64,000 bases of DNA from an uncultured Nitrososphaeraceae archaeon (GCA_963765895.1 CAVXZB010000073.1:1-64000), one strand, 5' to 3'; positions 8,896 to 58,227 are shown, counted from the stretch's first letter. Notes: a model not told the origin generated them from the letters alone. Translations and numbers: made by a program.

Positions 8896-9367
8896 TATAC
8901 TTCTTACATCCAGAGTCTATCGGCTCTATAGCCGGCTCTTATGATGATCCAACTATACCTTATGTGCTGTTCCCAGACCATGATTAAGATCAAAGCCCAG
9001 GTTATCCTATCATTACTAAAAAGCAAAGGATACTGTACTACGCTTGCATATTATCTAACTACTTCCCATTGTGTGGGGTTTGGTCGTGTGCAGTTTTCCA
9101 CAAGAGATACTTCTGTGATAAAACAGGAACGATTTAAAATATGTATAAAATAAAATGGATAACCTCCAGGATAGAGAATACGGAATGCCATTGTCCACGT
9201 CAAAAATCAGAGAATAGAGTAGCCGGCTTACCGAAATCGAAATCTAACAAGACAGTCAAAGCCGGCGAATATACCAAGAAATACTTCTTACACAAGGGCC
9301 CACCAACTGTGATCGGAGCCTTTGTAAATAAGACACAAAAAATGCCGGAGATTTTTGTCTAATTATA

Positions 9368-9556
9368 CTATAGATCTTGGATCAGACTAGGTCGACGTCC
9401 AGGTGTAAATATAAAATCCCGCAATCTTTGGATTCTTTGTTGTGATAGTATTCCATTGGCAAATACTAAAGCATTACACGTATTGCACCTTAGCATAATA
9501 CGTCTAGTCTTGGTAGGCTTGAGCACAGACATAGAATTACAGAACAAGCAATACAC
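9368..9556 (-). CDS. small Zn-ribbon protein, module copy 1 (intact)
   Basis: CLFC-x17-CNTC; homologues at 28359-28524 and 34524-34694. Confidence 0.75.
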   Translation of the reverse strand: MYCLFCNSMSVLKPTKTRRIMLRCNTCNALVFANGILSQQRIQRLRDFIFTPGRRPSLIQDL

Positions 9557-9615
9557 ATATCGTTCCCATAGGTTGATAACAGATAATTTACTAATGTACA
9601 GTATATCATACCTAG

Positions 9616-9635
9616 GCTATATATAGCGCCAAGAG
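9616..9635. promoter_or_regulatory. conserved GCTATATATAGCGCCAAGAG site, copy 1 (palindromic TATA-like)
   Basis: Same motif at 18143, 28587 and 34443, each about 60 bp upstream of the Zn-ribbon start. Confidence 0.65.
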
Positions 9636-10085
9636 AATTTCGCCAGACAGTTTGGTTTGTTCGCCGGTTTTTCGACTGCATTATAAAATCTTCGCCGGCA
9701 GACCGGTTTACTACATGATAGCACAAATGGCCTGCGAGAATACGCTATGCAAAATGGATGCAAAAACATATGTGCGAATATCTTGATAGAACAGGTAAGA
9801 TTCTGTCTAAAGACATGGCAAGAGAAAAAATCCGGCGAGCAGTATAAGATAGAAAAACTAAAGAAAAGGAAAATGAGACATGAAGTTAACGCCGGCGTCA
9901 TCGAATTATATTCAAAGTCATATTTAATATTCCAACTCGATTTTCGCCGGCTAGATAATCATCCCGCTTCAACAGTACTCTTCAATATCTCACTAGTCAT
10001 AGGAATGATTATGTAGCAGAGAAAAAGATATTCTTATTTCTAAAAATACTACTATTTTATTTTTCTATTTGTACAAGTCTAGATT

Positions 10086-10286
10086 CTACTGTCCTTCGTC
10101 ATTATTCGGAGTTCCCATATCGTCACAGGGTAGTATATGAAATCTAGTCTCATCTTGAGGCAGATATTTGTCTGAGCAATGCCTTTTTTCGCTTTCGTTT
10201 GCGTACACTGTGTTACCATGTGTCAGAACGCCCAACAGTACCAAGCCTGCGAGGATAACCACACTTACCGAGACGATTTTGTTCAT
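10086..10286 (-). CDS. small secreted protein, CxDKYLPQ family
   Basis: Signal peptide from MNKIV; motif shared with 31219-31443. Confidence 0.6.
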   Translation of the reverse strand: MNKIVSVSVVILAGLVLLGVLTHGNTVYANESEKRHCSDKYLPQDETRFHILPCDDMGTPNNDEGQ

Positions 10287-10439
10287 AATATGTGAAACAC
10301 TTTTCGTAAACAAAAGGTTTCTAAACTTTATTTCCAAATAAACTACTATTTTATTTTTCTGCCTCATTCCGAGTTCTACTCTTTGTGATCTTGGTTTGGT
10401 ATTGGTTCATGTTTATGGCGACTATTAATCCCAGGATGC

Positions 10440-10720
10440 GCCAGTAGTTATGCGAACTATCCTTGGATCTATCCACATTATAAGCTCAATAAATGTTAGT
10501 AATCTGATGGCTGGCAGGTTCTTCACTGCATTGCCAGAAAGCCGGCAAAATGCGGCTGTATGGTGCTACAGGATTCTCAAAGAAGCATACCAAAATGTAT
10601 CTTGAACCACATAACAATAAGGAACAGATAATGGAGTGGAGTGCGTTAACACTTTGGTTCTACCAAGCAACCTAGAGGCATGAGAAGTGGCTAATCAAAG
10701 TTTGGCTACACACCATCCTT
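10440..10720. repeat. dispersed repeat R1, partial copy
   Basis: Aligns with 15245-15620 and 23185-23490 (CACxxxATTGyCAGrAAGCCGGC, GTGGAGTGyGTTAACA). Confidence 0.75.
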
Positions 10721-11342
10721 GGAGGAAGGCAAATCTGCCTAAGGCGAGTGAGCCGGCGGAAAAACATTGTGGATTCCTAGGACTACTATGCCTCGTAGAT
10801 AAATTGCAAAGTCTCTTCGGCAGCTCTACAGTAAATCCATCTCTAGGAGTAAAAGTATCTAATATCGGTGGGATAGATTAAATGAAAAAGGAAAATTAGT
10901 TACGGGCAGTCAAATGTTGCTTAATCTGCGTCACTTCCTGTATTTGGCGCTTTGTCACACCAACCCTTTATGTAGTTCTTGTTAAACTCTGGTGAGTGAT
11001 CATTAAAGCCCTTACCAGGCTTTGTTATGTATAGGTGACAGTTATCTGGATCAGTCCAATTAGCTTAAAATTAGTTCGTTTTAGCAGGACTATGTCTAAC
11101 AATGGATTCATCTGGCAAATGATTTAGTCTTTCGTTCCTCTTTAGTAGTTATATTCCAGTTTATTATTCGCTATTCTGATTTATTCAGTTAAACAGTAAG
11201 GATAGTAAAGTCATTACCGTTCAAATTATAAAGTACTTCATTTGATTTGGCTTGATTTCGACAATATGACCAATTAGAAATTCTCTCTGTAGTATCCTTT
11301 AGCCAAGTGAGTTTATATTATTTCAATCAGCTACTATAATAA

Positions 11343-12628
11343 ATGGTCAACCGAGCAAAATCATTTAAGAGAAGAACTTTAGTGACTGTGGTTATCGCAT
11401 CGTTGGCCATCATAATTCCAGTCATATATTTGATTCATAACTCTTCTACTGCTTCGGCAGCTCCTTCTATAACCAAAAGTGCAAAGCTGAAAGTTGAGAC
11501 TCTAGCTAAGGGTCTTTCCTCCCCCTACCAGCATGGCATTTATTGATACTAACAACATACTGGTCTTAGAGAAAGGTGGGCAAGGACGTCTCGTGTCAAA
11601 TGGAGTACTAGAGGATAAGCCAGTCTTGCAAGTATCCGTTGATACAGAAAGTGAACGTGGTCTGCTTGGAATTGCTATTATGAATGATACAAAGACTAAA
11701 GTTGCTAATAACAGCAAGTTTGTATACCTGTACTATACTGAATCGAAAGGTGGAGATCTTAGAAATAGGATTTACAGATATGAATGGAATGGACAAAACC
11801 AAAAACTTGTCAACCCTACTCTGATATTAGACCTTCCCGCTCTTCCAGGTCCTAATCATGATGGAGGGAAACTAGTTATTGGTCCAGACCATTATCTTTA
11901 TGCAGTAATAGGAGACCTTAACCACAGAGGTAAGCTTCAGAATATTAATGATGGACCTGATCCTGATGATACTTCAGTTATATTCAGAGTTAATCCTAAC
12001 GATGGTTCAGCTGTCAAGGACAATCCATTCATAAAGGACGCTAATATTGCAATACACAAATACTATGCCTATGGAATACGAAATGGCTTTGGAATTACGT
12101 TTGATCCCATAACTGGTAATTTGTGGCAGACAGAAAACGGGCCTGATGTATATGATGAAATTAATGTAGTAAAACCAGGCTTTAATAGTGGGTGGACCCA
12201 AGTTATAGGACCTCTTTCAGGAAATACAGGTTTTAAGATGGGCCAATTGGTTAATTTTCCACGCTCTCATTATGCGGATCCTGTATTTAGCTGGAAAAAT
12301 CCTGTTGCAGTTACAGATGTAGAATTTATGAAATCATCAGTGCTGGGAGAGAAATACAAAAATAATATTTTTGTTGGTGATTATAATAACGGTAATTTAT
12401 ATTATTTTGAAGTCAACAGGTACCAGAACAGGAATAAATCTTGATATCAACCAAAAGAAGATTGGATTGTCTGGTTTGGTAGTAGACAATGATAACCAAC
12501 AATCTGCAGTAACATTTGGTACTGGTTTTGGTGGAATTAGTGATATAAAGATCGGACCAACAGATGGCTTTCTATATGTTTTATCAATCAATGATGGAAT
12601 AATCTACAAAGTTATACCAAGTCTGTAA
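11343..12628 (+). CDS. PQQ-dependent sugar (GSDH/aldose) dehydrogenase, frameshifted
   Basis: ERGLLGIA, NHDGG, YAYGIRN and DEIN motifs; N-terminal membrane anchor. Confidence 0.9.
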
Positions 12629-12762
12629 TAAGCTGCAAGGTGAGTTGATAGTTGGTTTTTCCAATAGTACTAGTAGTAGTTAACTAGTGTAGAGGAGCAT
12701 TCAGATATACATGGCAAGATCCGCGAAACCTATAACTGACATGTGCAGCATAGAATAGTGTC

Positions 12763-13116
12763 ATGTCTAAAGCCGATCTTCACCATAGGCTGGATAGTGC
12801 AAATGAAATAACACTCAGTGTTAAAGGTAGAAAATCCGGCAGAGATATTCCTCGCCCAGTCTGGTTTGTGCATGAGGGTAACACTCTGTATTTGCTTCCA
12901 GTTCAGGGCTCTGAAACCAAATGGTACAAGAATCTGCTAGTCGATCCAACATTGAAGATTTCTGTAAATGGCGTAGAAATATCTGTGGGAGGTAAACGAA
13001 TGACAGACAGTGATAGGGTTGATGATGTTATTCAGAAATTCAGGTCTAAATATGGCGAAGGGGAGGTAAAAAAGTATTATAGTAAATTTGATGTGACAGT
13101 TGAGGTTTTGCTCTGA
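12763..13116 (+). CDS. deazaflavin (F420)-dependent nitroreductase-family protein (Ddn-like)
   Basis: GRKSG..PVWF..WYKNLLVDP. Confidence 0.8.
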   Translation: MSKADLHHRLDSANEITLSVKGRKSGRDIPRPVWFVHEGNTLYLLPVQGSETKWYKNLLVDPTLKISVNGVEISVGGKRMTDSDRVDDVIQKFRSKYGEGEVKKYYSKFDVTVEVLL

Positions 13117-13248
13117 CAGCTCTTATCAGAAACCTCTTAGGTTGTGAATTATGTTGTTCAGTCATATGTCTGTGATTCTGAATATTTTTGACGCTTAACC
13201 AATAAAGGAAAATAAAGTTAACAAAAAAAGAATATCATGATGACATCA

Positions 13249-14010
13249 TCACACCGTCTGGCCTCCATCAACGATCATGGTATGTCCGGTGACGAAGGAA
13301 GCCACATCCGAACATAACCAGATGACTGCTGGGGCGATCTCTTCGGGCTGACCCATCCTTCCAACCGGTTCCTGTGAGATCATTGCTTGGCGGCCTTCAG
13401 GAAAGCCCCCGCTGAAGCGTTGGATCATCTGGGTGTCAATCATCCCGGGGGCCACGGCGTTGATGCGAATATTTGACTGGGCGTAGTCGAGGGCAGCTGC
13501 CTTGGTCAGGCCGATCACACCGTGCTTGGCGGCACCGTATGCGGCCTCCTCCTTGAATCCTTTGACACCGGCGCCAGAAGAGGTATTTACGATGGCGCCG
13601 CCTCCTTGCTTGAGCATTAGCGGAATTTCGTGTTTTAAGCACAGGAATACGCCGCGCAGGTCAGTATCGACCACACGATCCCACTCTTCGACTGCAAGTT
13701 CCGCTGTCAGTGCCAGCTTCTGTTCTACACCTGCATTATTGAAGGCGAAGTCAAGTCGCCCGAAGGTTTCGATGGCCTGTCCAAGACAGTTCTTCACATC
13801 TTCTGTTTGTGTTAACATCACACTTGACTGCGAGCGCCCGTCCGCTTGCCTCTTTGACCATCCGGGTCGTTTCGTGGTTCCCTTGCTCTGAAATATCGGC
13901 GACAACAACGCTAGCGCCTCCACGTGCAAAAGCAACCGCAGTGGCTCTACCAATGCCACTTGCTGCTCCGGTCACAAATGCAACTTTCCTTCGAAGTTAT
14001 TACTCTTCAT
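13249..14010 (-). CDS. SDR oxidoreductase, frameshifted, GC-rich
   Basis: [13 protein letters not shown] and YGAAKHG. Confidence 0.9.
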
Positions 14011-15109: not shown

Positions 15110-15970
15110 TCGAAGAATAAAGAAAGAAAAAGAGGTTGTTTTCCACCGAGGTGAATGATATGAAATATAATAGATACCGGGAGCCTAAATCTTTCCAGAT
15201 ATCCATATGCTGTCCGCGAAATGCCGGCGAACATATAGACATACCCCTAGGTTATTCTAGCTATCCTGAATATAACTCTGCTATAAGCAACCCGTTACTG
15301 TTATGTAGAAATTTGCTATCTTGCTAGCTACCTATACACTATGCCACCTATCTGCTACTTATTATCTAATTTACCTACTGATTCCTTGAGGATCCGATAA
15401 TGATCCAGGAGAACTGACATAAATATCGGCTGTTCACTATATTGTCAGGAAGCCGGCGAATGCAGCTGGGCCATTCTGCTTGATTCTGAAAGGAGCATAC
15501 CAATATATCTTGGATCACTTCAAAAGAAGGAATTGATAAGGGAAGTGGAGTGTGTTAACAGCTTGTTTTCTACCTAGCATTCGAGAGACAGAAATCGAGA
15601 GCCAATTAAAGTTGGTCTACATGCTATCACCGGATATAAGCAAGAAGCTTCCTATTTGTCAATGTTGAAAGGTATCGATGGATGGCAATCTATTCTTCGT
15701 AATTCAAACCGAGGGGTTAGCATAAATCGTAACGCTACCAGAAGAAATTTCAATATAATTTGCGGTAACACCTATAATAAAGATAATGTAGGTCACTTGA
15801 ATATTGTATTCGATGCCCGCTGGCTTTGACCTAGACTTCTGATGTTACAGCGGTCAGCTTACTAAAAATGAATCTAACAAGAGTATCCTAGCCGGCGAAC
15901 AAATCAAGAAATATTGAAGCCTCGTAAATCATCTCATAATGGTGGTCAGTGGTCAATTACTAGATTCATG
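15110..15970. repeat. dispersed repeat R1, longest copy (three GCCGGCGAA sites)
   Basis: Aligns with 22590-22680 plus 23110-23750, with 10440-10720, and at its 3' end with 9222-9380. Confidence 0.8.
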
Positions 15971-16024
15971 CACTAATCCAAAGTAATCAAGTCAAATAAA
16001 TAACCAAACAAATAAAGGATTTGC

Positions 16025-16682
16025 CTACACTACATTGAAGGCTTTTTGTAACTTTGAATCGTAATTGTCTTTTTTGATTTCTAGATTGGTATTATAAATT
16101 CCACTGTTTGATCGAGGTCCTATTTGTACAGTAAATGTCGTGTGTCCATCCTTATCCGTATATGCCGTTTGAGTAGTTGTTGTTGTTGTTTTGTCTATGG
16201 ATGGATTGAAATTCGGTGGTTCTATGGTCAGTAGAACAAGTACATCGGAGACAGGTTGATCCGTATATTTATCTCTAACAGTTACACTCATGTAAGTTGT
16301 ATCACCTACTTTTACAGGGTCTTTTATTACTGAATAATCGATACTATAGTGATTTGGGTTATTTGAAGACTTGCAGTTAACTATTCCACTAAACAGAGGT
16401 GCAAACTTTCCTCCAGCAATATTATCAACAGTATTACAAAAGCCCTTTCCATCTGAGGATATACTATTTTTACCATCAAAGGCAGGCTGCTTTTCCATTT
16501 CCAGAAGTATCAATATCCACATCAGCTCTGGCAGTTTGAATGATAGTAGGTAAGAGTGATAGTGGTGATGATGATGAAATTGCAGGAAGTATTGAATAAT
16601 TAGATAATAATACCGAAGGTGATGTTATAGTCAAGACTACAAGTAGACAATAATAATGATAAATTTAGATTCCCTTTTCATA
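16025..16682 (-). CDS. secreted Ig-like domain protein, frameshifted
   Basis: Hydrophobic leader at 16560-16680; VTVRDKYTDQPV and AYTDKDGHTTF. Confidence 0.55.
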
Positions 16683-16789
16683 TATCCACTACCTTCTTTA
16701 TTATATACACGTTTATACATACTCATCTATCTCTTTAAAATTAGTTGATTTGAAAAAATATGATTGTATCTTTCCATACTATTCCTAAT

Positions 16790-17168
16790 CCTGCTCACAA
16801 ACACCAACCAATCATCTGCCACCGGCTCCTGCCGCTGTCTGCACTGCCACCGGCTGGCTTGCAGATGACTGCTGCGCTATCGCCAGCTCGCTGCCGCTGC
16901 TGCTGCACTGCCACCGGCTGCCTGCAGATGATGCTGCCACTGCCACCGGCTGTTACAGATGATGCTGCGCTATCGCCAGCTGCGCTGCTGCTGCGGCTGC
17001 GCCATGACTACCATGATGATGTTTATTATTATTATTATGATGACCGTAGTTGTAGTGGTGATGGTTTCTGTGTGCGAACACGGACTGCTGATCTGACATT
17101 GTTGTAGTAATTAGTCCTAGAGCTATTGTCGCTATTGCTATTCCTGATATAACATGACTTAGATTCAT
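16790..17168 (-). CDS. secreted His/Asn- then Ala/Gly/Ser-repeat protein, frameshifted
   Basis: Signal peptide; imperfect tandem units GCTGCGCTATCGCCAGCT and CACTGCCACCGGCT. Confidence 0.55.
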
Positions 17169-17424
17169 ATCTACGCAATGTATAATAGATTTGAGTATAC
17201 TAAGATTATGAACATAAATTACAACTTCTTGATCTGTAATTATTGTCTATAAGATATTTGGTGCAGTTTTTTCTCTATATGAACCGGATGAGCAATAATG
17301 CAACCTTACTTATGGCAGTAATCGCAATGAGCCTCATTGTGATTATCCTAATCCACTCCAAGTGTTATGTAAAGACTTTAGAGTATATGTCCTACCAGTA
17401 TACAATAGCGAACATGGCTTTACG

Positions 17425-18077
17425 TATCCATAGACTATCTTAGTTTATGGGAATTGCATACAAGTTAAAAATATTGTTGCTATATTTATCTGCATAGGCA
17501 AATAATAATCCTGTCTATGATGTTGGAATAGCCTGATATAACTAACCTGATTCATTAATCCGCCTGCCAATATAGCTGGTCTGGATAGACCTTATACTTC
17601 AGGCAGTTAGGCCACATAGAATATCATAGACAGAAGGCCGGCCGTTATAGAATTCAGCAGTCTTAGGGGATCCACATCCTACCTATGACATACACTGAAT
17701 TCATTTAACGTCCGTGTGCATAACTGAATAGTTAGTATGCATTTATCAATATTATACGTTATAGAATACAATTATTCAAGTTAATAATGTACTGTCATTA
17801 TCTATAATTTATCTCTATTTTCTTTATGAAAATACCGCTACATTCAATCTCCGCGGTATTGTTGATAGGAAACTCCAACGCTTTCATATCAATGACTTGT
17901 CCAATCTCTTATGCTCGATATAGCATATTTATGATAGTCATTATTGCCGGCATACTCAACCTCATAAAGGTTCTCTATAAGAGATCAAATCAGATCCGAC
18001 AACCATGCAAGACAAGATCCGTATATGTGAGACAACATGATTATAATATCAAATCGATATTACTTGTAAAAAAGACA
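17425..18077. repeat. direct repeat R2, copy 1
   Basis: Nearly identical to 27676-28325 from 17501 onward. Confidence 0.95.
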
Positions 18078-18142
18078 ATATACCGTTCGTTCCCAGAAGT
18101 CAATAACAGACAATTTACTGATGTATAGTATATTATATCTAA

Positions 18143-18162
18143 GCTATATATAGCGCCAAGAG
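18143..18162. promoter_or_regulatory. GCTATATATAGCGCCAAGAG site, copy 2
   Basis: Exact match to 9616-9635. Confidence 0.65.
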
Positions 18163-18603
18163 AATTTTAAACAGTTTGGTTTGGTTGCCGGTTTTATGGC
18201 TGCATGAGATATTCGCCAGTTTTCCGGCAAACGATAAAATAAAAAATAGATGACCGCCACCTGAAGGTACATACAAAGCAAAGAAGAAGCCTAAGGAATT
18301 TCATGAATGTATTGTTCAAATGAGTAAATTTCCGTGCGAAAGACATGGACAACGGGACCAAAATCCGGCAATCAAGCAGCATTCGAATAGAAATAGAAGA
18401 AATAAAGAAAAATGAAATAATGAAGTTATAGTCAACGTTTATCAGGATCATATTCAAAGTCATATTCGGCAATACGTATCGTGGTTTTGGCCGGCTAAAT
18501 AATCATCTGCTGCTGGTTGTGTAATCATATGGTATGTTCATTGGACTCCGACATATCACATTTCATTATCTTTATTTCAATCATGATGTATCTACCTTTA
18601 TCC

Positions 18604-19340
18604 ATGTCAAAAAAATTAGAGAACAGAGTCGCTGTCATTACCGGAGCTACCAGCGGTATGGCGCTTGCTACCGCTAAATTATTCGTCGAGGAAGGTGCTT
18701 ATGTCTTCGTCACTGGCCGCAGCCAAGAAAGGCTCGATAAAGCAATCAAAGAAATCGGCAAGAATGTCACAGGCATTCGGGGCGATGCCGGCAATCTTTC
18801 CGACCTCGATCTGCTATTTGAGATAGTCAAAAAGGAGAAGGGCCGTCTCGACATCCTCTTTGCGAGTGCTGGCGTTGCCGAGCTCAGCAAGCCGTTTGGC
18901 TCCATTACCGAGAAGAGTTTTGATGATACGTTTAACGTCAACGTTCGTGGCACTCTATTTACCGTGCAAAAGGCTATATGCCGCTCATGAAGGATGGCGG
19001 GTCAATCATTCTGAATAGTTCTATTGCCGGAGTGAAGGGATATCCAGGCACCACCGTCTACAGCGCCAGCAAAGCGGCCATACGTTCTTTCGCCCGAACT
19101 TGGACTGCCGAGCTCAAAGGAAAGATTAGGATCAATGTCATCAGTCCAGGTCCAATAGATACGGCGATATTCGACGGCGCTTATCAAGAAATCAAGGATG
19201 GTTTAGCCTCCATTGTCCCGATGGGTCGAATGGGTCAACCGCCAGAGATTGCAACTGCTGCGCTCTTTTTGGCATCTGATGATTCCAGCTTTGTTACCGG
19301 AATTGAGCTATGCGTCGACGGCGGCGCAGCGCAGGTCTAA
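18604..19340 (+). pseudogene. SDR oxidoreductase copy A, frameshift near 18975
   Basis: TGATSGMA and YSASKAA; near-identical to 33276-34012 including the frameshift. Confidence 0.9.
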
Positions 19341-19574
19341 TTTGAAATAGAAAGCACTAGTCTAACTTCAGGGAATTATTCCATTTTCATCCTGCACTAG
19401 TAGTCGAAATTGATTCTGGTCCCAGTCTACGCTGGCTAGTAAGCCAAGAGAGATACCAACTCCCATGAACTGCGCTATCCAATATTGGCTAAGCAATGGA
19501 TTTCAGATATAAAATCGATAGAAAGTGTGATACTGCATGTAGGTAAAACTTGAACTTAATACGCCAAAACCAAG

Positions 19575-19790
19575 AAAAAACATTGTGGATTTCTAGGACT
19601 ACTATGCCTAGGAGATAAAATCCATGGTCTCTCCGGTAGTCCTATACTAAACCCGACACTATCTCCAAAACTGATACCTTTATCAGCCTAAATTAAGTAA
19701 ATAAAATAAAAAAAGATTATGGACAGCTAAACGTTGCTTGGTCTCCGTCACTACCACCACCACCACCGGCCGCACAGAATCCACTATTGA
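19575..19790. repeat. repeat D: converging 3' ends of two decayed genes
   Basis: Homologous to 10760-10980: KHCGFLGLLCL on + and GSDxDxATFxCP-stop on -. Confidence 0.7.
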
Positions 19791-19984
19791 ACAAGTGGAT
19801 AGTGGGAGGCAGCAGTCATTTACTGGTCCTCCAGCAACGCGTTAACATGCTCTAACGTTGGTATGAAATTTCATAGTAATGTAGGTGTAGAATAAACTTG
19901 GGCATGGAACACAGAATAAACAAATAACTGCTTACGCTCAAAAGTTGAGACTCATAATATGTTGTTACGTTTGTATAATTAGAT

Positions 19985-20098
19985 TCACAATTTTATATTC
20001 TCAAGCTCTTTGTAACACTCATTACAAACAGTCTCATTTTCCTTTGATGTAAACAATTTGCCACATGATGAACACTTTATTGCATGTTCTTCATACAT
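19985..20098 (-). CDS. 37-aa zinc-ribbon microprotein
   Basis: MYEEHAIKCSSCGKLFTSKENETVCNECYKELENIKL; below the ORF cutoff. Confidence 0.6.
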   Translation of the reverse strand: MYEEHAIKCSSCGKLFTSKENETVCNECYKELENIKL

Positions 20099-20718
20099 GT
20101 CTTTATATCATTTACAACAAATTATTAAAACAATTACTATCTTGTAATTTTTGTCAAGCGGATAATACACTTTCAGATTTAGGCGATGCCTCGAGACTTG
20201 ATCACGGTAATTAATAAAAATTACTAAAAAATTGATAGCCAAAGTATCCGAATGTGAAAGTTGCAATAGCAAAGACAATGGTTGTACTGGTGGTTCAATT
20301 TCTGGGCAGCCACAGGCAAGACACTTGCAGAATCCTCCTGCTTCTCTCCTGTGTCACAGGGCATACTTACTACACCTGACTATAGTGGCCTCATTTACGA
20401 CTTTGACGGTCATATAATGTCCCTACAGGTAGCACCAAAACCAAAACCCACAACTTCAAATGCAACATCAATAACGGCATCAACACCATCATCTGCATCT
20501 ACTGGTAGGGATTCATTGACTAGATGGCTAGCGAGCCTGTTTGATTCTAGTGAGTCTTACAAACCCTACTTTTTTGAACTGTTGAAACGATCTCTTTTCA
20601 CTAGAACAAAGCGTGATTACCCGACACGAAACATTGGTATTATGGAGTACATAAGGCAAATTTGACATGTTTTTTTAAATAGTGGCCATACTGCATATAG
20701 AGATGTAAACAAACAAGA

Positions 20719-21171: not shown

Positions 21172-21213
21172 AGTAAATGGTTAATTAATATCCAATACAT
21201 ATCCATATGTTTA

Positions 21214-22589: not shown

Positions 22590-23750
22590 AATAATAAAGA
22601 AAAGGAAGCGGATTAGAAGAGTTGTTGTTTTCCGTCGGCACAAATGGTATGAAAATGCAATAGAAGCCGGCGAGGTTAACGATATAGGATACAATGACCG
22701 TAGCGTAGTAATTTACTGCTGGGCAGTATTGCTCTAGATGGAAATGGAGGCAATGGTAGATTCTTGGTAGATGGCACTGGCTTTGGTAACTAAAAATTAA
22801 GTATACTTAGTTTAATTATACATATATTCATCTGTGTCTACTTGGTAGACGGCTCGCTCCTTAATTCTGTGACATGGATGGCACAATCGCCGCATATTTC
22901 TAACTGTTGATTCACCTGATAATGCCCACGGGACAATGTGATCTACAAAGTTCGCTATCAAGAAAGTATTGATGACAAAAGTATTGATGACAATAAGCAC
23001 ATCAAGGGGTTATGCATCTCGATTGATTGCTTGTGTCCATTGTAATACCTGCATTCTCAAGATTTGTGTTTTACTAAATGAAAATATTGCACCTTTACCA
23101 CTATAGTAGCTATAGATCGCCCGGCCAGCGTAAATCTTTCTAGATATCTACACGATGTCCGATAATTGCCGGCGAACATAATAGACATACACCATCAGTT
23201 ATTCCAACTTTCCTTGAATCTAGCTGCAGTACAAGCATTCACTAATTCTAGTGTCATCGCTTGCTTGTTATGACTTCAATAAATGTCGGTATTCTGACTG
23301 CAGTTATGCTCTTCACTTCATTGTCAGGAAGCCGGCGAAATCCAGCGAGATAGTCCTATGCGATTCTGAAAGAAGTATGCCAAATATTTCCTAGAACTAC
23401 CGCACAAGAAGGAACTCAGATAGGTGGAGTGTGTTAACACCATGATTTCTGTCTAACAATCGAGATACAGAGGTAGAGCAGCTAAAAGTGTGGGACACGC
23501 TATCATCGGATATAAGCAAGAAGCCCTCCAATTGGTCATGTTGAATGGTATCAATTGATGGCATCTGTTCTTCGTAATTCAAACGAGGTTAGCCTAAGTT
23601 ATAACGCTGATAAGGAGATTCCGATATAATTTGTTGTAATACCGATAACAAGGATAACGCTGGTCACCTTGTTGTATTTGATGCTCGCCGGCTTTAGGCC
23701 AAGGTTCCTGGTGTTATACCGACCGACTTGCTGAATCTAGCAGGACTGTC
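22590..23750. repeat. dispersed repeat R1 copy with about 450-bp insertion (22680-23111)
   Basis: Both flanks align to contiguous sequence at 15110-15890. Confidence 0.75.
22812..23000 (-). pseudogene. HNH endonuclease fragment
   Basis: VDHIVPWALSGESTVRNMRRLCHPCH. Confidence 0.75.
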
Positions 23751-28358: not shown

Positions 28359-28524
28359 TCAACGTAGAGGTGTAAATCTGAAGTCCCGCAATGTTCTAAT
28401 TCTTTGTTGCGAGAATAATTCCGTTGGCAAAGACTAGAGCTCCGCAAGTGTTGCATCGCAGCATTATACGTCTAGTCTTGGTAGGCTTTAATGTAGCCAT
28501 AGCATTACAGAAAAGACAATACAC
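28359..28524 (-). pseudogene. Zn-ribbon protein, module copy 3 (+1 frameshift)
   Basis: MYCLFCNAMATLKPTKTRRIMLRCNTCGALVFANG / LFSQQRIRTLRDFRFTPLR. Confidence 0.8.
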
Positions 28525-28586
28525 ATATCTTTCCCATGAGTCAATATTTGGCAATTTGCGATAGTATAATAATATATTATTACTCA

Positions 28587-28608
28587 GCTATAGATATAGC
28601 GCCAAGAG
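28587..28608. promoter_or_regulatory. GCTATAGATATAGCGCCAAGAG site, copy 3
   Basis: Variant of the conserved module site. Confidence 0.6.
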
Positions 28609-28743
28609 ATCGAACAATTGGATATTACATCCTGCTGGTAGAGGGGTTCATCTACTTTAGAAAATTCATTAAGCAAGGATATAACAATAATATATGGGGG
28701 GAGAGAGAGAAGCGTTGTCATCGGTTCGATGGAATCCAAGACA

Positions 28744-34012: not shown

Positions 34013-34442
34013 GGATTAAGGTAGTTACATAATGATTGAAATAAGTTAATGAAGTGATATGTCTTAGTCCAATGACCCATTGTCTATGCAAGTGCATCCA
34101 ATGGATGATAATATTGCGGGCAGAAAAGTGAAATGAACAATGCCGAACATGACTGTGGGGGCATGACATCTATGACGCAGGTGATAATTTCACATTTCTG
34201 CTTCATTTCCTTTTTCTATTTCTATTCCAATACTACTAATCACCGGATTCTTATCTACTGTCAATGTCTTTCGATGAGACACATGTTCTATGGATGTATC
34301 TGCATCTGCATCTGCATACTTGCTTTGCTTTCTTATCGCCTATCATGTACCTGACAGCCGCTGTTTTATTTTGTTATTAGCCTGTTTGCCGGCGAAGATC
34401 TAAGTACTTGTAAGAGCTTATGAATAAGCCATGTCATTCACC

Positions 34443-34464: not shown

Positions 34465-34523
34465 TTAGATATGATGTATTATAGTACAGTAACTTGTCGG
34501 TTGTTGGCTCATGGGAACGATAT

Positions 34524-34694
34524 ATGCATTGTCTTTTTTGCAATGCTATGGCTACGTTAAAGCCTACCAAGACGAGACGAATAATGCTGCGCTGCAACAC
34601 TTGAGCTCTGGTGTTTGCCAATGGATTATTCTCGCAACAGAGAATTAAGACGTTGAGAGATTTCAGATTTACACCTGTGCGTGAAATAGTATAA
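34524..34694 (+). pseudogene. Zn-ribbon protein, module copy 4 (in-frame stop at the fourth Cys)
   Basis: MHCLFCNAMATLKPTKTRRIMLRCNT*ALVFANGLFSQQRIKTLRDFRFTPVREIV. Confidence 0.8.
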
Positions 34695-34762
34695 AGCAAT
34701 GTACATAGTATGGTCAATTATCGCTTAAGTCACCATGGGAGCTTTGCCGATAGGCAGTTTTA

Positions 34763-35577: not shown

Positions 35578-36372
35578 ATCCCGTAGCTAACAACACCACA
35601 CACGACCTGCATGCGGGTTTGTCGTTGCTTCATCAATTACGGAGATAGTATTATCACCGGAATTAGCGACATATACTTTGTCTCCAGATGATCTTTGGTG
35701 CCAGCAGTACAGCAATAAGTGGCATGTAGTGTTCGCCGGCAACAACCATATCGATGATGGAGGGTCACACCAACTTATTTAGTAACCTGGGGTCAAAACA
35801 AGAGCAATTAGTTAGTTCGATTGGTATTCAGTCAGTCACTCAGTCAGTAACTATAGATTCATTACTTGTATCACTATTAGTAGTATGTAATTGTTTTTCC
35901 TTCCTGGTTTCCTAACCGTCTCATTGTAACTCTCCAATGGGTCGATATACAGGCTAATCTTGAGACATTAATAAAGAGCAGTTAAACTAAGAATAATTGG
36001 GTCCGATTATATCAGTATCAATCTAGCCTGCTCAAATAATATGAAGATTGGTCAATGTTATGATTGTATGCTGCATTTTGGCAGCAAAGGCCTTGGTTAT
36101 CATGAAAGCGTAACGGCTCCGACCATGCTGACTACGATAGCACAATAAAATGATGTTTGTTTAGCTGGCAGAAAGCTACGTATATAATGCCGAATATGAC
36201 TTTGAACAGGGACCATATTGTGAAACGTTGTCCGACTATGTTCCACACCATAGTTACAGGGCTGGATAAATAAATGACATTTCGTTTCCAATCGACTGCA
36301 ACTAGAATCTTCTCCTAGAAAAATGTAACTGAATGTCCAATAATATGAGTCTATAATAGATATAGTAACAAG

Positions 36373-41204: not shown

Positions 41205-41495
<291 letters not shown>

Positions 41496-41509
41496 TGACG
41501 CGCCTGCTG

Positions 41510-42079: not shown

Positions 42080-42255
42080 ATGAAGGCCTGCAGATACTTT
42101 GGTAGAGAGTACTTTATTTCGCCGGCGAACTGCACCTGAATTACTATGCATAGATGAATTACCATGAATAACTGCAGCCAATAGTTAGGTCTATCAAGAT
42201 CAGAGCTATATGTTTTTATTAAATCCTATTGGATTTTGGTTTTCTAAGTAGAATG
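42080..42255. repeat. dispersed repeat R3, copy 2, with TTCGCCGGCGAA at 42118
   Basis: Shares TAGATGAATTACCATGAATAACTGCAGCCAATA with 40045. Confidence 0.85.
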
Positions 42256-43780: not shown

Positions 43781-43810
43781 ATTGCCTAACTGATTGCTAG
43801 GTTAGTCTAT

Positions 43811-55019: not shown

Positions 55020-55640
55020 ATGAGCATAGGGCTGGGAGAAGAGAAAAAATCAAGGTCTAAGACGAAGGATCAAAAGGAAGAAAAACCATCTTTGCCAAAA
55101 GAAGATGTCATATCATCACGGCCGCTTCAATTAGAAGTATTTGATTCGTCTAGTGATAATGCGATGTCAGAAATGAAAAAAGTAGCAGACATGGGACCAG
55201 ATGAGATAACTAAGGTATTTCTAGATGTAGATGGAAATCAACGTCTTGATCCTTTAACTACAAGTATCAATGATATTATTAAAAAAGCCGATTCTGACCC
55301 CACTAGTTCTCACAGATGGTGGAGCCTACCTTACAGGAGAGAGATCCTGGCTCAAAATCATAACAATATAATATAAGCCCAAAACAGAATGCGACATCCG
55401 AAGTTTCTGAAGTTCAGAGTGACTCAACCGACCGAGATTATTTAGAAGAATCAGCTACGATTTATGATAGCGAGAATAAAGTATTACAATCTAGTTCTTC
55501 AAATAATGATATTTATAACCCGTTCATCTCAGGAATAAAATTTTGGTAAGCCCATAGTATTGCATGGATAAATGCATATGATCAATTCTTGAAATCTTGG
55601 ATTGACAATATTAGATTATCTCAGATACCAAGTTAAACAA
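55020..55640 (+). pseudogene. acidic hypothetical protein, fragmented
   Basis: ORF 55020-55376 plus a downstream continuation. Confidence 0.4.
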
Positions 55641-55737
55641 CTGATTCACTTCAGGATGCTGTCGAGGAATTGAACCAGTAAATCCGCCCATATCTAGTTG
55701 CAATGTCAGCTACATATGTCATATTATCGCTGATGTC

Positions 55738-55986
55738 TTAAAAGTTAAACAAGTCACCAAAAAATCCTCTGCTTCTTCTTCTGTTATCATAATAGTCATC
55801 AACATACTCTCCATTTCTATAATGGTAATTGTTATAATGTTCGTCTTCGTAGCTACTTTGGATTTGGGCTATCTTGTCTATCTCCCCTCTGTCTAACCAC
55901 ACTCCTTTGCAAGAAGGACAGTAATCAACAAACGCCCCGTACCTTTGCATTAGCTGCATTTGAGTTGAACATTTTGGACATTGCAT
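55738..55986 (-). CDS. zf-TFIIB domain protein
   Basis: CPKC..VDYCPSCKGVWLDRGEIDKI..FFGDLF. Confidence 0.9.
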   Translation of the reverse strand: MQCPKCSTQMQLMQRYGAFVDYCPSCKGVWLDRGEIDKIAQIQSSYEDEHYNNYHYRNGEYVDDYYDNRRRSRGFFGDLFNF

Positions 55987-56235
55987 GTTTGAATATTTAT
56001 CGCCTCTTTTGTTATTACGTAAAGAAAAGGTGCCGTTTAAGATTAATGTTTGCCTTGCCTTGCTTTTTCTTTTATTTTGTTTTGTTTTGCATGGTTCTAC
56101 TATCTATCTTATTTCATCCGATAATTCATCAGGGATTCTTTTGACAGTTGAAAGATACTTGACTTTATCGTAGACCACACTTATGAGCAGGACAGCCTCA
56201 AGCTATATGTCTATCTATTTTTGAGATGAGTTCGT

Positions 56236-56400
56236 AGAGTCTCTTTAATTTGATCCAAGAAACAATGCACTCGAATACGAATCATCATATGAATTCAGAT
56301 ATTTTCATAGGTTATCTGGCATAAGTATATTCTGTTAAACCGTCTTTCATTATGAATCTAGTTCTTGTAACCTAGAGTGTGTAGTTCGCCGGCGAAATGC
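56236..56400. repeat. dispersed repeat R3, copy 3, with TTCGCCGGCGAA at 56385
   Basis: Matches 39862-40025. Confidence 0.85.
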
Positions 56401-56639
56401 GCATCGATTGTCAGTAGGAATTTTAGTATATAAAAAAGAATATTAACTGATTATGATCCCTTAAACATTTGTTGCCGGCGAATATGAATCATCATCTCGT
56501 CAGCTTCGTGTAGGCAGACTGATCACATCGCGGCGTACTCGAGGTACAACAAAGTTGTTCTCCATGTTAGACTTCATTATATAACAATAGGACATGGAGA
56601 CACACAAGGCCGGCGAACAACATATTTCCTTCGTCATGA

Positions 56640-56900
56640 TTATGATGAGCCTAAAGCATTTAGCTTCTCTTCAATGGCTTCAAATCTTTTATTTGAATAT
56701 TCTTGACGTTCGGTCCTAATTCTGATTCCTTTTCCATCTTTCAAATCTTTTGTGTATATGCGCATTAGAGCATTTTCTCCATCTTCCCAAGCAACTTCAA
56801 ATTCCTTGCCGGCATATTCGACAAGAGAATCTTGCCGAAATGCCACATTGTAACAATCCAAGAGTTGTGGTTTGTGATACAACTAGGTGATGGTTGGCAT
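56640..56900 (-). pseudogene. C-terminal fragment of a Rep-like protein, distant paralogue of 57277
   Basis: WIVTMWHFGKD..RIYTK..RTERQE across a frameshift. Confidence 0.5.
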
Positions 56901-58227
56901 GTTGTATGTGGGCAGCCTGTTACTAGATCTGATATTTTCCCTGACCTGATGTCAGGATATTTGACAATCCGATAAGACCTCCATGATCAACTACTACTGG
57001 CTTCATAGAACACGATATGATGATGATACTGATGAGAGTGAATGAACTATTATAAGGAATATTTGTGCGCACTCATATCCAATCTACTATGTATAGAGTT
57101 TAGTCTCCAACGTCTATGTTTTTATGAAGTGCATTATATTAAACGCATAAGCGCCGGCGAAATACATCATCTAATATGAATACAACTATAATAATACAAC
57201 GGACAAAGAATCGAATAGAGGCTATATCGGATGTCTTATGTTTTATAATCATAGTATACAAAAAAGAATATTGGAATTACTGTTTTGACAGCGAATCAAT
57301 CTTTTGTCCTAACTGTAGGACCATATTCATTAAATCCTTGATCGTCCTAACAGGCATTATTATACTATCTAATGCTTTGGGTAAGGGAAAATCCAGGGTC
57401 AATGACTTCTCTCCCCTGCAAACAGCCCTATCATGCAACGATTTAATGTACATTCTGAATACCTGACCTGCGTGTTTTAATTGGATATCTGGTAGATGTA
57501 ATTGAGCTTTCTCGTTTATTTCAACATCTCTATTAAGATCACATCCCTTTAGAATCCAGTCTGTAATTACTGGAACTTCTCTTTCTCGAATATCTATTAC
57601 AAGATGTATCAATCTGTCTCTGACTTGTCCAAAGAATGAGAATAATATAGCCTCGTCTTCATCCGTTTCTAGTCTGAAGGGTGTATCGCTACTTCGAACT
57701 GCAATTTCAACTCGTCCATTAGGAGAGAAGGTATAAGTGACGTGCCTTCGTCCTATGTGTTCCTCATGGCGTTTAGCTCGGTTTATTGGTTCGACTTTGT
57801 TTGCCAATCTTTGGTAGCAATCCTTGTCAATGGATAACATCAGTTGTAGCCTGTGAATGTGCAGTTGTGCAAATGGCAGCTGGATTAATACATCAAAGAA
57901 GCTTTGAGCCTTTTGGTATCCAAGAACGCTGGATAGGGCATTACCATAGTTTGAGACGTTCGATAGGTTACTGTTAGATAGGTTAGACACCGTGGGTTCA
58001 ACTAGTACACTTGATCTATTCTTGAGATCTTCAATTATATCAGCCTTGAAACATGAAGGGAAGTATTGTTGCGGATTGGTATTTTCTATAAGGTAGATTC
58101 CTTGAGAATTGAGATCTCCTGCAGTAAATAATATGCAGCCATCACGAAAATGCTTCAGGCTTCTTTGAGCATGACTTTTTCTAAGTGAAAACCTTTGTAG
58201 TAGATCTTCAAATGTTATACCCTTTCC

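Follow-up and report, generated by a model that had tools for sequence, protein, structure and literature searches.

The window, i.e., the entire 64-kb stretch of DNA analyzed here, consists largely of decayed paralogous genes, among which the 9-mer GCCGGCGAA or its reverse complement recurs at 15 loci, representing 17 strand matches in an exact search. In 100 dinucleotide-preserving shuffles of the window the mean number of matches was 0.09 and the maximum two, in agreement with the approximately 0.1 sites per window estimated in the initial annotation, all fifteen positions of which were recovered. Exact copies are located on the + strand at 9261, 15223, 15452, 15891, 23168, 23331, 34388, 56474, 56609 and 57153, on the - strand at 9691, 9943 and 35732, and on both strands at 42118/42121 and 56385/56388, where they form, as had been claimed, the full 12-bp palindrome TTCGCCGGCGAA; a one-mismatch copy of this palindrome, TTTGCCGGCGAA, begins at 34385 and includes the site at 34388. 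With up to one mismatch to GCCGGCGAA, 28 matches are found in the window against 3.1 expected. Of the seven near-matches listed previously, five are indeed one-mismatch sites (9660, ACCGGCGAA; 10541..10549 (+), GCCGGCAAA, at a homologous position in a B-type module; 10752, GCCGGCGGA; 22666..22674 (+) and 23684-23692 (-), both GCCGGCGAG), while those at 9831 (TCCGGCGAG) and 9891 (GCCGGCGTC) are, when read in the sequence itself, two-mismatch variants.

Many of these sites stand at the boundaries of modules. B-type modules start at 15452..15460 (+) and 23331..23339 (+), and seven alignment ends fall 19-24 bp ahead of the former site, one of whose partners, C84:69934, loses homology exactly at the motif. 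The C-type sites at 15223..15231 (+) and 23168..23176 (+) are homologous to one another, the former also to C59:15072, and the 23168 site shares homology with its partner C84:64516 on the GAA side only (left 4 bp, right 309 bp). At 15891..15915 (+) a solo A-type cassette end is present, comprising GCCGGCGAA and approximately 17 bp (caaatcaagaaatatt), with no zinc-ribbon (ZR) gene behind it. The site at 35732..35740 (-) is a weak member of the D-type module family, and the E-type full palindrome at 42118..42129 is flanked on both sides by sequence homologous to other copies. The other full palindrome (56385..56396) is the first of four sites within 780 bp, the remaining three of which, at 56474..56482, 56609..56617 and 57153..57161 (the last preceded by C, i.e., CGCCGGCGAA), share the same orientation (+). 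It lies approximately 3.7 kb from the end of an integrase-like gene (60887-61882), and C68 holds an arrangement homologous to this region, with sites at 37662/37810 and an integrase gene at 42683-43792.

The zinc-ribbon cassette

The repeats surrounding the motif had been assumed to hold no genes, but the commonest of them is a real small gene, encoding a previously undescribed zinc-ribbon protein of 64-67 aa. The genome contains approximately 34 copies, which are 70-87% alike and under purifying selection. The ZR cassette measures approximately 410-440 bp, is bracketed by inverted copies of the motif and, followed in the direction of the gene, consists of GCCGGCGAA(gatct), ~55 bp, a TATA box, the ZR gene, 85-120 bp and (agtatttcttgatctg)TTCGCCGGC. 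Its upstream site is positioned ~55 bp from the end of the ZR core and ~65 bp from the TATA box in varied sequence backgrounds, and in G003 and G004, which represent other species of the genus, the coordinates place sites 57-65 bp from the core end. When at most one mismatch is allowed, a site is present upstream in 11 of 30 ZR rows and downstream in 12 of 29; about one third of the copies thus retain a good site at either end, and in several copies the cassette ends extend to GCCGGCGAA(--)GATC versus GCCGGCGAA(ca)GATC. Genes for an SDR, a MEDS-domain protein and other accessory functions are located a few hundred bp past the sites, divergent from the ZR gene. Within the genus the numbers of ZR copies and motif matches rise together (34/87, 20/33, 8/15, 7/13, 6/23, 3/13 and 2/12). 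The ZR protein belongs to no recognisable DNA-binding family, and its structure model is poor (pLDDT 60.7).

The longest form of the repeat unit (~750 bp, 9215..9964) carries motif-like sites at 9222, 9261, 9660, 9691, 9831, 9891 and 9943 around a ZR gene, whose open frame at 9368..9616 (-) retains the full protein sequence, with a TATATATA box at ~9620-9627; this copy may nevertheless be inactive because the usual start-codon position reads TTA. The A-type site at 9261..9269 (+), near an extra GCCGGC at 9222, forms the outer cassette end ~100 bp past the 3' end of the ZR frame, and the site at 9691..9699 (-) precedes the promoter end of the ZR core by ~55 bp, the two constituting a 9-bp inverted repeat around a 439-bp cassette. 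Several alignments to other copies stop at 9963-9964, 12-13 bp past the site at 9943..9951 (-). A further upstream site, GCCGGCGAA(gatct) at 34388..34396 (+), stands 55 bp before the promoter end of the ZR copy at 34443-34711, a pseudogene (34485..34694, +) with an in-frame stop codon where the last zinc-binding Cys stands. The copy at 28396..28587 (-) has a truncated C-terminus, its frame leaving the family after FANG, and no 9-mer adjoins it, a GCCGGC being present at 28193. Finally, a partial core retaining the promoter-proximal part only (18076..18163, +) is situated upstream of a frameshifted SDR gene (18517-19340).

Genome-wide distribution and the ends of homology

Across the whole 4.9-Mb assembly of this soil archaeon, GCCGGCGAA yields 87 matches at 77 loci versus 6.9 expected under an order-2 Markov model. 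This count against a Markov background, proposed in the initial annotation, places it third to fourth in over-representation among the 83,490 9-mers with at least 40 counts, below only the overlapping TCGCCGGCG/CGCCGGCGA. In ORFs of at least 150 aa the observed and expected numbers of loci are 5 versus 3.0 (unique DNA) and 2 versus 0.9 (repeated DNA), giving 7 versus 3.9, while in DNA without such ORFs they are 18 versus 1.75 and 52 versus 1.31, respectively, giving 70 versus 3.1. The claim that no site lies in an intact gene is therefore sound for the window, where only the 9691 site falls inside an ORF, an unconvincing one of 94 aa, but not strictly so for the genome, where 7 of the 77 loci do lie in long ORFs, at chance level. 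The longest open frames across the 87 oriented genome sites occupy all six frames (24/15/15/12/11/10), as the mention of different reading frames had implied; most sites lack an open frame, and the B, C, D and F modules are without a conserved frame running through them. Together with the lack of excess in long ORFs, this excludes a coding motif and supports a signal at the DNA level.

The excess survives the collapse of homologous copies: the sites fall into 25 single-linkage flank groups, the largest with 36 loci, 86 oriented sites represent 60 distinct flank contexts, the unique non-ORF loci remain in excess, and the same 9-mer heads mutually unrelated module families. The loci are concentrated in a few repeat-rich contigs or accessory islands of one Nitrososphaeraceae genus, and the islands carry integrase and primase-helicase genes. 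Most sites are hundreds of bp from any ORF of at least 90 aa, and among 60 sites classified by flanking-gene arrangement 7 are divergent, 19 convergent and 29 tandem, a weak classification given that small genes had not been called. Beyond the 9-mer, conservation is limited to a weak TTC at -3 to -1, and GCCGGC as such is slightly over-represented genome-wide (954 versus 783 expected, both strands counted). In homologues found with the motif masked in the query, motif columns are identical in 181 of 207 cases (87%) compared to 1072 of 1380 (78%) for the flanks, so that the motif is, by a modest margin, kept at homologous positions as previously described.

Homology between diverged copies often starts exactly at the first G and runs toward the GAA side. 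Among 89 in-register site pairs, derived from 84 oriented sites with 400-bp flanks and excluding pairs above 97% identity, homology extends no more than 10 bp past the G on the 5' side in 29 pairs; on the GAA side it stops within 10 bp in only five and runs for at least 100 bp in 51. In a genome self-alignment (15,734 alignments kept, those of at least 98% identity or shorter than 80 bp being dropped), 103 alignment ends within 40 bp of the motif extend into the GAA side, and 20 of them are placed at offsets -1 to 0 (binomial p ~1e-12, though the ends are not independent); ends extending away from the GAA side show no peak. The proposed proximity to homology breakpoints, which a rough test confined to the window did not bear out significantly (p ~0.08-0.18), is thus clear genome-wide once strand orientation is considered.

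Three junctions illustrate this pattern. C84:531224 and C85:2318 share 91% identity across 581 bp of the GAA side and 26%, i.e., random level, on the other, where C84:531224 runs into a response-regulator gene fragment; C84:69934 and C84:64364 are 94% identical on the GAA side and lack homology on the other; and C9:596 and C68:20950 are 98-99% identical up to GCCGGCGA, identity falling over the next ~25 bp before homology ceases. With 91-99% identity on one side, these junctions are too recent for decay to account for them, and a word of 9-12 bp is presumably too short to have caused assembler mis-joins. Among high-similarity pairs, 60 are concordant on both sides and five discordant, some of the five being dubious.

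A candidate junction core and its alternatives

The enrichment, its restriction to non-ORF DNA, the oriented pile-up of homology ends, the three high-identity junctions and the anatomy of the ZR cassette are all direct observations, and they lead us to favor, tentatively, the view that small mobile modules carry the motif at their ends as a core for recombination or attachment; among the recombination, methylation and binding sites suggested initially, a recombination site fits best. The palindromic GCCGGC would be the crossover core, or a duplicated target, and the GAA arm would represent the conserved first three bases of each module, the far-side arm being weakly TTC-like. A ZR cassette joined end to end would restore the palindrome, the remnant expected if small circles integrated by site-specific recombination within GCCGGC. 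A recombinase would make the junctions, and the genome contains approximately 21 tyrosine-recombinase matches; a link between the sites and a recombinase or transposase was not found, and of 22 ORFs of the integrase family only one is closer than 2.5 kb to a site.

Several findings count against a recombination core. The arms of known tyrosine-recombinase core sites measure 9-13 bp, compared to the 9-mer and weak TTC conserved here; recent duplicates are mostly concordant on both sides; motif columns are only moderately better conserved than flanks; and a good site survives at either end of only about one third of the ZR copies. Many motif-bounded modules (80-440 bp) are geneless and lack the TTC end. 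A delimitable insertion of 347 bp has GCCGGC 10 and 28 bp inside its ends rather than at them. Neither an empty site nor a motif-bounded presence/absence polymorphism was found among the window paralogues, and the homology of relatives ended elsewhere; no inverted cassette occurs among the ~7 copies sharing the conserved left flank of the A-type site.

Comparison with known systems yields partial likenesses. Integrons, which were reportedly recognized in archaea in 2022, similarly possess a short conserved core as the exact module boundary and an accessory-gene neighborhood, runs of same-orientation cores occur here (15223/15452/15891 and 56474/56609/57153), and a free cassette circle would hold one complete site. 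However, the integron core is GTTRRRY rather than GCCGGCGAA, no 57-141-bp imperfect-palindrome attC, integron integrase or attI lies beside the runs, most modules are geneless, and the single clear cassette carries a promoter of its own. Xer-dependent modules (the pdif modules of Acinetobacter plasmids, and IMEX) share one- to two-gene modules, inverted short sites with a 6-bp central region, homology between copies that ends at the site and an enzyme supplied in trans, yet their sites have 11-bp arms on both sides, while conservation here reaches no more than 3 bp beyond the core, on one side; no link between the motif sites and a Xer-type recombinase was found. The ~440-bp promoter-holding segment between 9-bp inverted repeats recalls fimS-type invertible promoters, from which it differs in that no inverted copy was found among the paralogues, no recombinase adjoins it and the motif is additionally present as single sites and direct runs. 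The analogy to HIP1 or Neisseria uptake sequences drawn in the initial annotation was not sustained. HIP1, DUS/USS and REP are likewise short, GC-rich, partly palindromic, far above expectation and often intergenic, but they number hundreds to thousands of copies chromosome-wide, HIP1 and USS also inside genes, whereas the present motif has 77 loci, in accessory islands only and at chance level in genes. Unlike REP, it forms no hairpin of REP length and is accompanied by no Y1 (RAYT) transposase. The attachment sites of thaumarchaeal integrated elements, as summarized by Krupovic et al. (2019; PMC6563490), come from the same host group and are unusually short (down to 8 bp, median 17 bp), which brings a core of 9-12 bp within the known range, and these elements carry integrase and primase-helicase genes, as do the islands here. 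Their sites are, in that account, element-specific direct repeats flanking kilobase-sized elements, in contrast to one word that bounds modules of 80-440 bp at 77 loci.

The main rival, which we consider possible but rather unlikely, is that a dimeric DNA-binding protein recognizes the motif as an operator, iteron or centromere-like site of integrated elements, in which case the binder may be the small basic ZR protein encoded beside many sites. A palindrome of just 12 bp, strong in one half and lacking extended arms, is of typical transcription-factor site size, the sites cluster (seven motif-like ones in 9215-9964, four in 56385-57161), and the fixed distance upstream of the ZR gene in several species, the joint rise of ZR copies and motif counts and the diverse, divergent accessory genes past the sites would all be in keeping with regulation by binding. 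Selection for binding would then preserve the motif, the junctions being a by-product of fragile bound sites or of the last constrained base. This leaves unexplained the fall from 91-99% identity to random level at the exact motif edge and the strand-oriented asymmetry of homology ends; moreover, divergent intergenic regions are not enriched, within the limits of that weak classification, most sites are far from any ORF, and the ZR protein shows neither a recognisable DNA-binding family nor a good model.

It is less plausible still that the modules are miniature inverted-repeat elements mobilized by a transposase in trans, with GAA...TTC termini and GCCGGC as a 6-bp palindromic target duplicated on insertion. 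Like such elements, the ZR cassette is short, multi-copy and without internal transposase, and has an exact terminal inverted repeat (9261/9691), with the GATC-extended ends noted above; solo ends of ~25 bp remain at 15891 and C68:20950, and insertion sequences are abundant, one DDE transposase ORF cluster having 87 members. Nevertheless, the inverted repeat is just 9 bp, apart from the motif itself there is no sign of a target duplication, inverted site pairs enclose no transposase, the genome has no Y1 transposase, and the only insertion sequence with ends read (58227-59179, ~74 copies) has unrelated ends. The modules of direct-repeat runs lack a TTC end, and the divergence of the ZR copies, with purifying selection on their gene, is more in keeping with an old, maintained gene family than with a burst of non-autonomous elements.

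A role in DNA modification seems very improbable; the motif would then be targeted, directly or as an extended context, by a GCCGGC-specific methyltransferase or restriction system, and repair coupled to methylation would have created or preserved it. GCCGGC is a classical restriction target (NaeI/NgoMIV) with the slight genome-wide excess given above, and the genome holds eight matches to N4/N6 methyltransferases of unknown specificity, yet the 88%-complete assembly contains no match to a cytosine-5 methyltransferase or Vsr, which leaves the earlier methylation proposal unsupported; a search for NgoMIV-family endonucleases returned no matches and was uninformative, its control likewise returning none in any genome. 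A modification target should furthermore act alike inside and between genes, whereas this motif exceeds chance only outside long ORFs, and neither the GAA arm nor the junctions would be accounted for. A functionless word, inherited within a few expanded repeat families or as a codon pattern of decayed genes, could draw on the 52 of 77 loci in repeated DNA, the flank-linked group of 36 loci and the decayed content of the window, but this highly unlikely reading is already contradicted by the collapsed counts, and the use of six frames, the presence of one 9-mer at the head of unrelated module families and its better conservation than the flanks all speak against it.

Under the tentatively preferred reading as a recombination or attachment core, GCCGGCGAA, in its full form TTCGCCGGCGAA, would be the junction at which small modular segments were relocated and joined anew inside the accessory islands of the genus.

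Genome-wide excess of the motif and its accessory-DNA setting

The 9-mer GCCGGCGAA, i.e., a GCCGGC core with a GAA arm, or its reverse complement was found to be exact at all fifteen window positions at which the initial annotation had placed it, and the sites at 42118 and 56385 indeed represent the full 12-bp palindrome TTCGCCGGCGAA. The window contains 17 strand matches, versus 0.09 per window in dinucleotide-preserving shuffles, and 28 versus 3.1 expected when one mismatch is allowed; five of the seven near-matches proposed earlier are such one-mismatch sites, while the remaining two are two-mismatch variants. The claimed over-representation also holds for the assembly as a whole (4.91 Mb, 88 contigs, 36.8% G+C, 88%-complete, with the window as the first 64 kb of contig C73), in which 87 strand matches at 77 loci were counted against 6.9 expected from an order-2 Markov background. 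Among 83,490 9-mers with a count of at least 40, the sole more over-represented 9-mer is the overlapping TCGCCGGCG/CGCCGGCGA. The matches are concentrated on contigs C73 (17, all inside the window), C68 (13) and C84 (12), with 3-5 on each of several small contigs and zero on the majority. Near-identical reversed duplicate contigs (C71/C77, and also the ends of C41/C43) were observed, and these slightly inflate the raw counts. Proteins homologous to one encoded in the window bear only the label 'Nitrososphaeraceae archaeon', in agreement with the lineage already given for this DNA.

When the genome was partitioned into ORFs of at least 150 aa versus non-ORF DNA, and into unique versus repeated DNA, ORF DNA was found to hold 7 loci against 3.9 expected (unique, 5 versus 3.0; repeated, 2 versus 0.9), while non-ORF DNA held 18 against 1.75 in its unique part and 52 against 1.31 in its repeated part. 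These counts indicate that inside genes the motif is an ordinary word, and that the entire excess lies in DNA without long ORFs. The analogy with HIP1 or DNA uptake sequences that had been drawn for the motif consequently fails on copy number and distribution, as HIP1 and DUS/USS elements are present in hundreds to thousands of copies chromosome-wide, including coding DNA, whereas the present motif occupies 77 loci in 4.9 Mb and shows no such abundance in ORFs.

The excess survives the collapse of homologous copies, as 25 groups remain when 200-bp flanks are linked, and 60 distinct 30-bp flank contexts are found among 86 oriented sites. The use of several reading frames was likewise borne out: the longest open frame over the sites falls in all six frames, and it reaches at least 150 codons at only 10 of 87 oriented matches. 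A coding motif is ruled out because six frames are used, most sites lack an open frame and ORFs show no excess; furthermore, tblastx revealed no conserved frame in the repeat modules labelled B, C, D and F. These results contradict both a coding and a purely inherited origin of the motif. Six other species of the genus exhibit a milder excess (12-33 matches versus 4-15 for a reversed control word), while outside the genus the motif is mostly at control-word level. The exceptions are genomes G008 (28 versus 6), G027 (22 versus 12) and G009 (5 versus 0, small numbers), of which the first two probably reflect codon usage in richer G+C.

When the window is divided into 500-bp bins, diverged copies of nearly all of them, from one to several per bin, are found in other parts of the genome; ORFs of at least 150 aa cover 14-31% of the window's first 48 kb, versus 49% genome-wide. 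Most genes that can still be recognised in it are fragmentary or are frameshifted paralogues, including short-chain dehydrogenases, luciferase-like monooxygenases, DUF72, a glucose/sorbosone dehydrogenase and methyltransferases; the window further contains an IS5-like transposase, an integrase-like gene and an MCM fragment. The motif is located between such genes, where it belongs to short repeat families that were named A to G according to their flanking sequences.

Other features of this DNA were also recorded. An IS5-like insertion sequence at 58227-59179 encodes a 295-aa DDE transposase and is present in ~74 genome copies; its inverted ends start with GGCTGTGTAGAAA, it has CCCTTTCC on both sides, and an empty site is found at C68:38876-38882. 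A 3.6-kb segment (10377-14000) comprises part of a GSDH gene, a small F420/PPOX-like ORF and an SDR gene of high G+C content (43.5% G+C at 12-14 kb). Both a 93-94% identical paralogous region (C59:11245-11251) and contigs from two metagenome runs of soil lack this segment, and in view of the 7-bp overlap at its joint it was apparently inserted independently of the motif. One SDR gene is present in two inverted copies, 18517-19340(+) and 33276-34012(-), each of which is broken into two ORFs at the corresponding position; the shared break and identical second parts (120 aa) indicate a pseudogene duplicated after breaking. A low-complexity run with a poly-Leu frame (41159-41584) aligns up to 86 times with other parts of the genome. 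Compared with a 95% identical copy on C78, positions 8919-8936 contain a tandem duplication of 12 bp (GGCTCTATAGCC GGCTCT), which creates a GCCGGC at 8931, so that the hexamer can arise by slippage. Finally, a ~125-bp repeat on contig C16 (5183-5307), of which genome G005 has dozens of copies at 80-90% identity and the remaining genomes of the genus several, possibly represents a miniature element in its own right.

Homology junctions at the motif

Homology breakpoints had been suggested to lie near the motif, and this association was not significant in an unoriented, window-only test, while it was clear in an oriented, genome-wide test. In a pairwise, in-register comparison of 89 pairs from 84 oriented sites with 400-bp flanks, from which pairs above 97% identity were dropped, homology ends within 10 bp of the 5' G (the motif edge opposite the GAA arm) in 29 pairs, often within 0-1 bp, versus 5 pairs in which it ends within 10 bp of the GAA side, i.e., the flank that is read past the GAA arm into the module. 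Homology continues for at least 100 bp into the GAA side in 51 of the 89 pairs. In agreement with this comparison, a whole-genome self-alignment that requires no selection of pairs (15,734 alignments kept, those of at least 98% identity or below 80 bp being dropped) placed 20 of 103 alignment ends, at most 40 bp from a site and extending into the GAA side, at offsets -1 to 0 (binomial p ~1e-12, for ends that are not independent), and a peak was absent among ends extending away from the GAA side.

In principle, old duplicates could show such a junction pattern where selective constraint ends. Three discordant pairs of high identity exclude that explanation for at least some events. The sites C84:531224 and C85:2318 are 91% identical over 581 bp of GAA side, and their identity falls to 26% on the opposite flank, where C84:531224 has the start of a response-regulator gene that is 91% identical to C59:16531-16691 until 9 bp before the motif; as this gene is broken at C84:531242 without resuming nearby, the event amounts to a replacement rather than a simple insertion. 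The pair C84:69934 and C84:64364 has a 94% identical GAA side and an unrelated other side. For C9:596 and C68:20950, it is the outer side that is 98-99% identical, up to GCCGGCGA, followed by ~25 bp of a differing 'A-type' end and unrelated DNA beyond, with the zinc-ribbon (ZR) cassette described below at only one of the two. In flank clustering, one outer flank is joined to differing inner flanks, and vice versa, and recent duplicates comprise 60 that are concordant on both sides versus 5 that are discordant. Many motif-bounded modules possess neither a gene nor a terminal TTC.

With the motif masked in the query and homology needed on both sides, 23 homologues were obtained for 10 of the 15 window sites, and none for the other five. 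The motif columns are better kept than the flanks (181 of 207 positions identical, or 87%, versus 1072 of 1380, or 78%), but the margin is undramatic. None of the insertions among window paralogues is bounded by the 9-mer, and no empty sites were found among paralogues or in other species; homology to genomes G004 and G006 and to contig C78 stops 230-390 bp from the motif. An insertion of 345-347 bp, relative to C29:15985, is present in two copies (17609-17955 and 27858-28202), both with a GCCGGC 10 bp inside the right end; a second GCCGGC lies 28 bp inside the left end of the first copy only, the second copy having GCTGGC, and neither inverted ends nor a target duplication were seen. Words matching the window were present in the 20 public runs listed, none of them RNA and all soil or rhizosphere metagenome contigs sharing at most 0.15 of the sampled words, and joints in four of these runs (e.g., 15221 to 23167) that might have represented rearrangements are explained by paralogues such as C59:15072 and C84:64364.

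The zinc-ribbon gene family and its cassette

The commonest repeat contains a core of 250 bp, of which this genome possesses 34-35 copies at 67-87% identity, including those at 9386-9636, 28359-28609 and 34443-34711 and a partial copy at 18076-18163 in the window. Between 2 and 20 copies are present in each of six same-genus genomes, and zero in the 14 genomes outside the genus that were searched. On one strand the core encodes MSxIDSWERxVxCLFCNSMATLKPTKTRRIMLRCNTCGALVFANGxLSQQRIxTLRDFRFTPxR, a CxxC-17-CxxC zinc ribbon of 64-67 aa. That the core is a real gene is supported by its start-codon column, which is TTG/GTG in 12 of 16 intact frames (with ATG by eye in one further copy); by a nearly invariant TATA box, TATATATA, ~33 nt upstream of the start; by the intact frame in 16 of 26 distinct copies; by the distribution of differences over codon positions among 13 distinct intact cores (577/304/1289); and by 23 homologues in a large protein collection, all unnamed or 'hypothetical' and most called at 64-67 aa. 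Synonymous versus non-synonymous codon differences among the same 13 cores number 1079 versus 528, and the family is, judging from these substitution patterns, under purifying selection. The three window copies all look damaged, with an altered start codon at 9368-9616(-), a shifted C-terminus at 28396-28587(-) and an in-frame stop at 34485-34694(+).

No Pfam or NCBIfam family was returned for the ZR protein at E < 0.01, a protein atlas yielded matches only to unnamed clusters, and its AlphaFold model is poor (pLDDT 60.7). ZR represents a new protein family whose range at the DNA level is one genus, and which is annotated elsewhere just as hypothetical. A structured RNA or omega-RNA-like scaffold was also considered for the 250-bp core and is ruled out, as the core codes for protein and has no consensus structure (consensus fold of -2.4 and -1.9 kcal/mol, 23/26 rows, with no supported helices); no Rfam or tRNA match was found within the window.

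In many copies the ZR cassette, a module of ~410-440 bp around the gene, has the following layout in gene direction: GCCGGCGAA(gatct), ~55 bp, TATA box, gene, stop, 85-120 bp, (agtatttcttgatctg)TTCGCCGGC. The window cassette at 9261-9699 comprises 439 bp between exact 9-bp inverted repeats (9261/9691), and no target duplication was seen beside it by eye. Allowing one mismatch at most, a site was identified at the upstream end in 11 of 30 rows and at the downstream end in 12 of 29. In genomes G003 and G004, the coordinates place motif matches 57-65 bp away from the core's promoter end, which is the same spacing as here. Varied accessory genes are located past the upstream site on the opposite strand, for example an SDR gene, or a gene for a MEDS-domain protein followed by that for a hydrolase.

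Candidate mechanisms and known systems

The palindromic 6-bp centre, the strong module-side arm and weak outer arm, the exact junctions, the cassette ends that would close into the full palindrome and the runs of sites in one orientation point to the motif as a sequence at which small modules, mobile or recombining, are joined. Site-specific recombination within GCCGGC would be the simplest mechanism for these junctions, with small circles or segments being integrated and exchanged by a putative enzyme acting in trans. The genome encodes ~21 tyrosine-recombinase (PF00589, Phage_integrase) matches and one serine recombinase, and attachment sites of thaumarchaeal integrated elements have been reported to be very short (PMC6563490). 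On C73 and C68, same-orientation runs of sites lie at a distance of 3.7-5 kb from integrase genes; a recombinase is not regularly found near sites (one of 22 integrase-cluster ORFs within 2.5 kb of a site), and no element delimited by a pair of motif sites could be defined. Since nothing is conserved past the 9-mer except a weak T, T, C at -3 to -1 (0.48, 0.55 and 0.38), the site is far smaller than known tyrosine-recombinase or transposase sites. An integrase-like ORF of 331 aa at 60887-61882(-) adjoins a small zinc-ribbon/coiled-coil ORF and an HTH regulator, and its absence from the 21 PF00589 matches indicates a divergent recombinase or one of another type.

We consider it conceivable, if rather doubtful, that the motif belongs to a new cassette-shuffling system with a recombinase that needs just the 12-bp palindrome and crosses over in GCCGGC. 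Mini-cassettes and intervening accessory genes would then be moved and re-joined, and the ~34-copy ZR gene would be a selfish passenger or a site-recognition factor.

The main alternative is that the motif is possibly the binding site of a dimeric protein, for which the ZR protein itself is a candidate. Such a role accounts for the small size of the site, its clustering and its fixed distance from the promoter, but leaves the junctions unexplained; binding site and junction sequence may also both be true at once. A transposase with GCCGGC as its duplicated target would yield the same end product as recombination in GCCGGC, but no transposase lies between inverted site pairs and the ends of the IS5-like element are unlike the motif. 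The motif as the ends of that abundant element is excluded, these being unrelated; a full-length transposase-coding element with motif ends was thus not found in the comparison, which covered the IS5-like element. A methylation or restriction role is conceivable but unsupported: the 88%-complete assembly has no match to PF00145 (cytosine-5 methyltransferase) or Vsr, which speaks against cytosine-5 methylation with Vsr-type repair, none to PF09015 (NgoMIV-type endonuclease, for which the control was likewise silent), and eight N4/N6 methyltransferase matches without assigned specificity.

The closest working analogies to motif-joined modules are integron cassettes, Xer-dependent pdif modules and miniature inverted-repeat elements, each of which fails at least one defining feature. 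Integron attC sites have GTTRRRY/RYYYAAC ends in an imperfect inverted repeat of 57-141 bp, whereas the core here is the 9-mer and no conserved inverse core or dyad is present in its flanks. Xer/dif (pdif) sites span 28 bp, with two 11-bp arms and a 6-bp centre, whereas the motif keeps 3 bp on one side and a weak TTC on the other. In a miniature inverted-repeat element, terminal inverted repeats enclose a short non-coding unit; here, an exact 9-bp inverted pair lies at 9261/9691, and the unit between its members contains the ZR gene. REP/BIME elements are imperfect hairpin palindromes of 20-40 nt, whereas the motif holds no information beyond its 12-bp palindrome; moreover, no RAYT/Y1 transposase (PF01797) match was obtained in the 88%-complete assembly (the control matched 6 of 14 genomes), which rules out an IS200/IS605 or REP/RAYT system. 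A full-text literature search for the motif strings returned no archaeal description among the 20 papers listed of 262, which are unrelated and presumably reflect primer use. The motif appears to be of a known kind, namely a short core for recombination or attachment that sits at the ends of modules, with a new small gene family attached.

The genomes of this genus are unusually large and gene-poor, and the present assembly is full of decayed oxidoreductase, sensor and mobile-element paralogues. A defined joining word of 9-12 bp offers a handle on how such accessory islands are built and reshuffled, and a site that can be tested directly with the numerous orphan integrases of these archaea; if it is only a binding site, it would still be the first candidate cis-element for these islands. 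If cassette shuffling is true, it would be the equivalent, in archaea, of what integrons or pdif modules do, with a far smaller site, and would help to explain the large, gene-poor and paralogue-rich genomes of this genus of soil ammonia-oxidising archaea.
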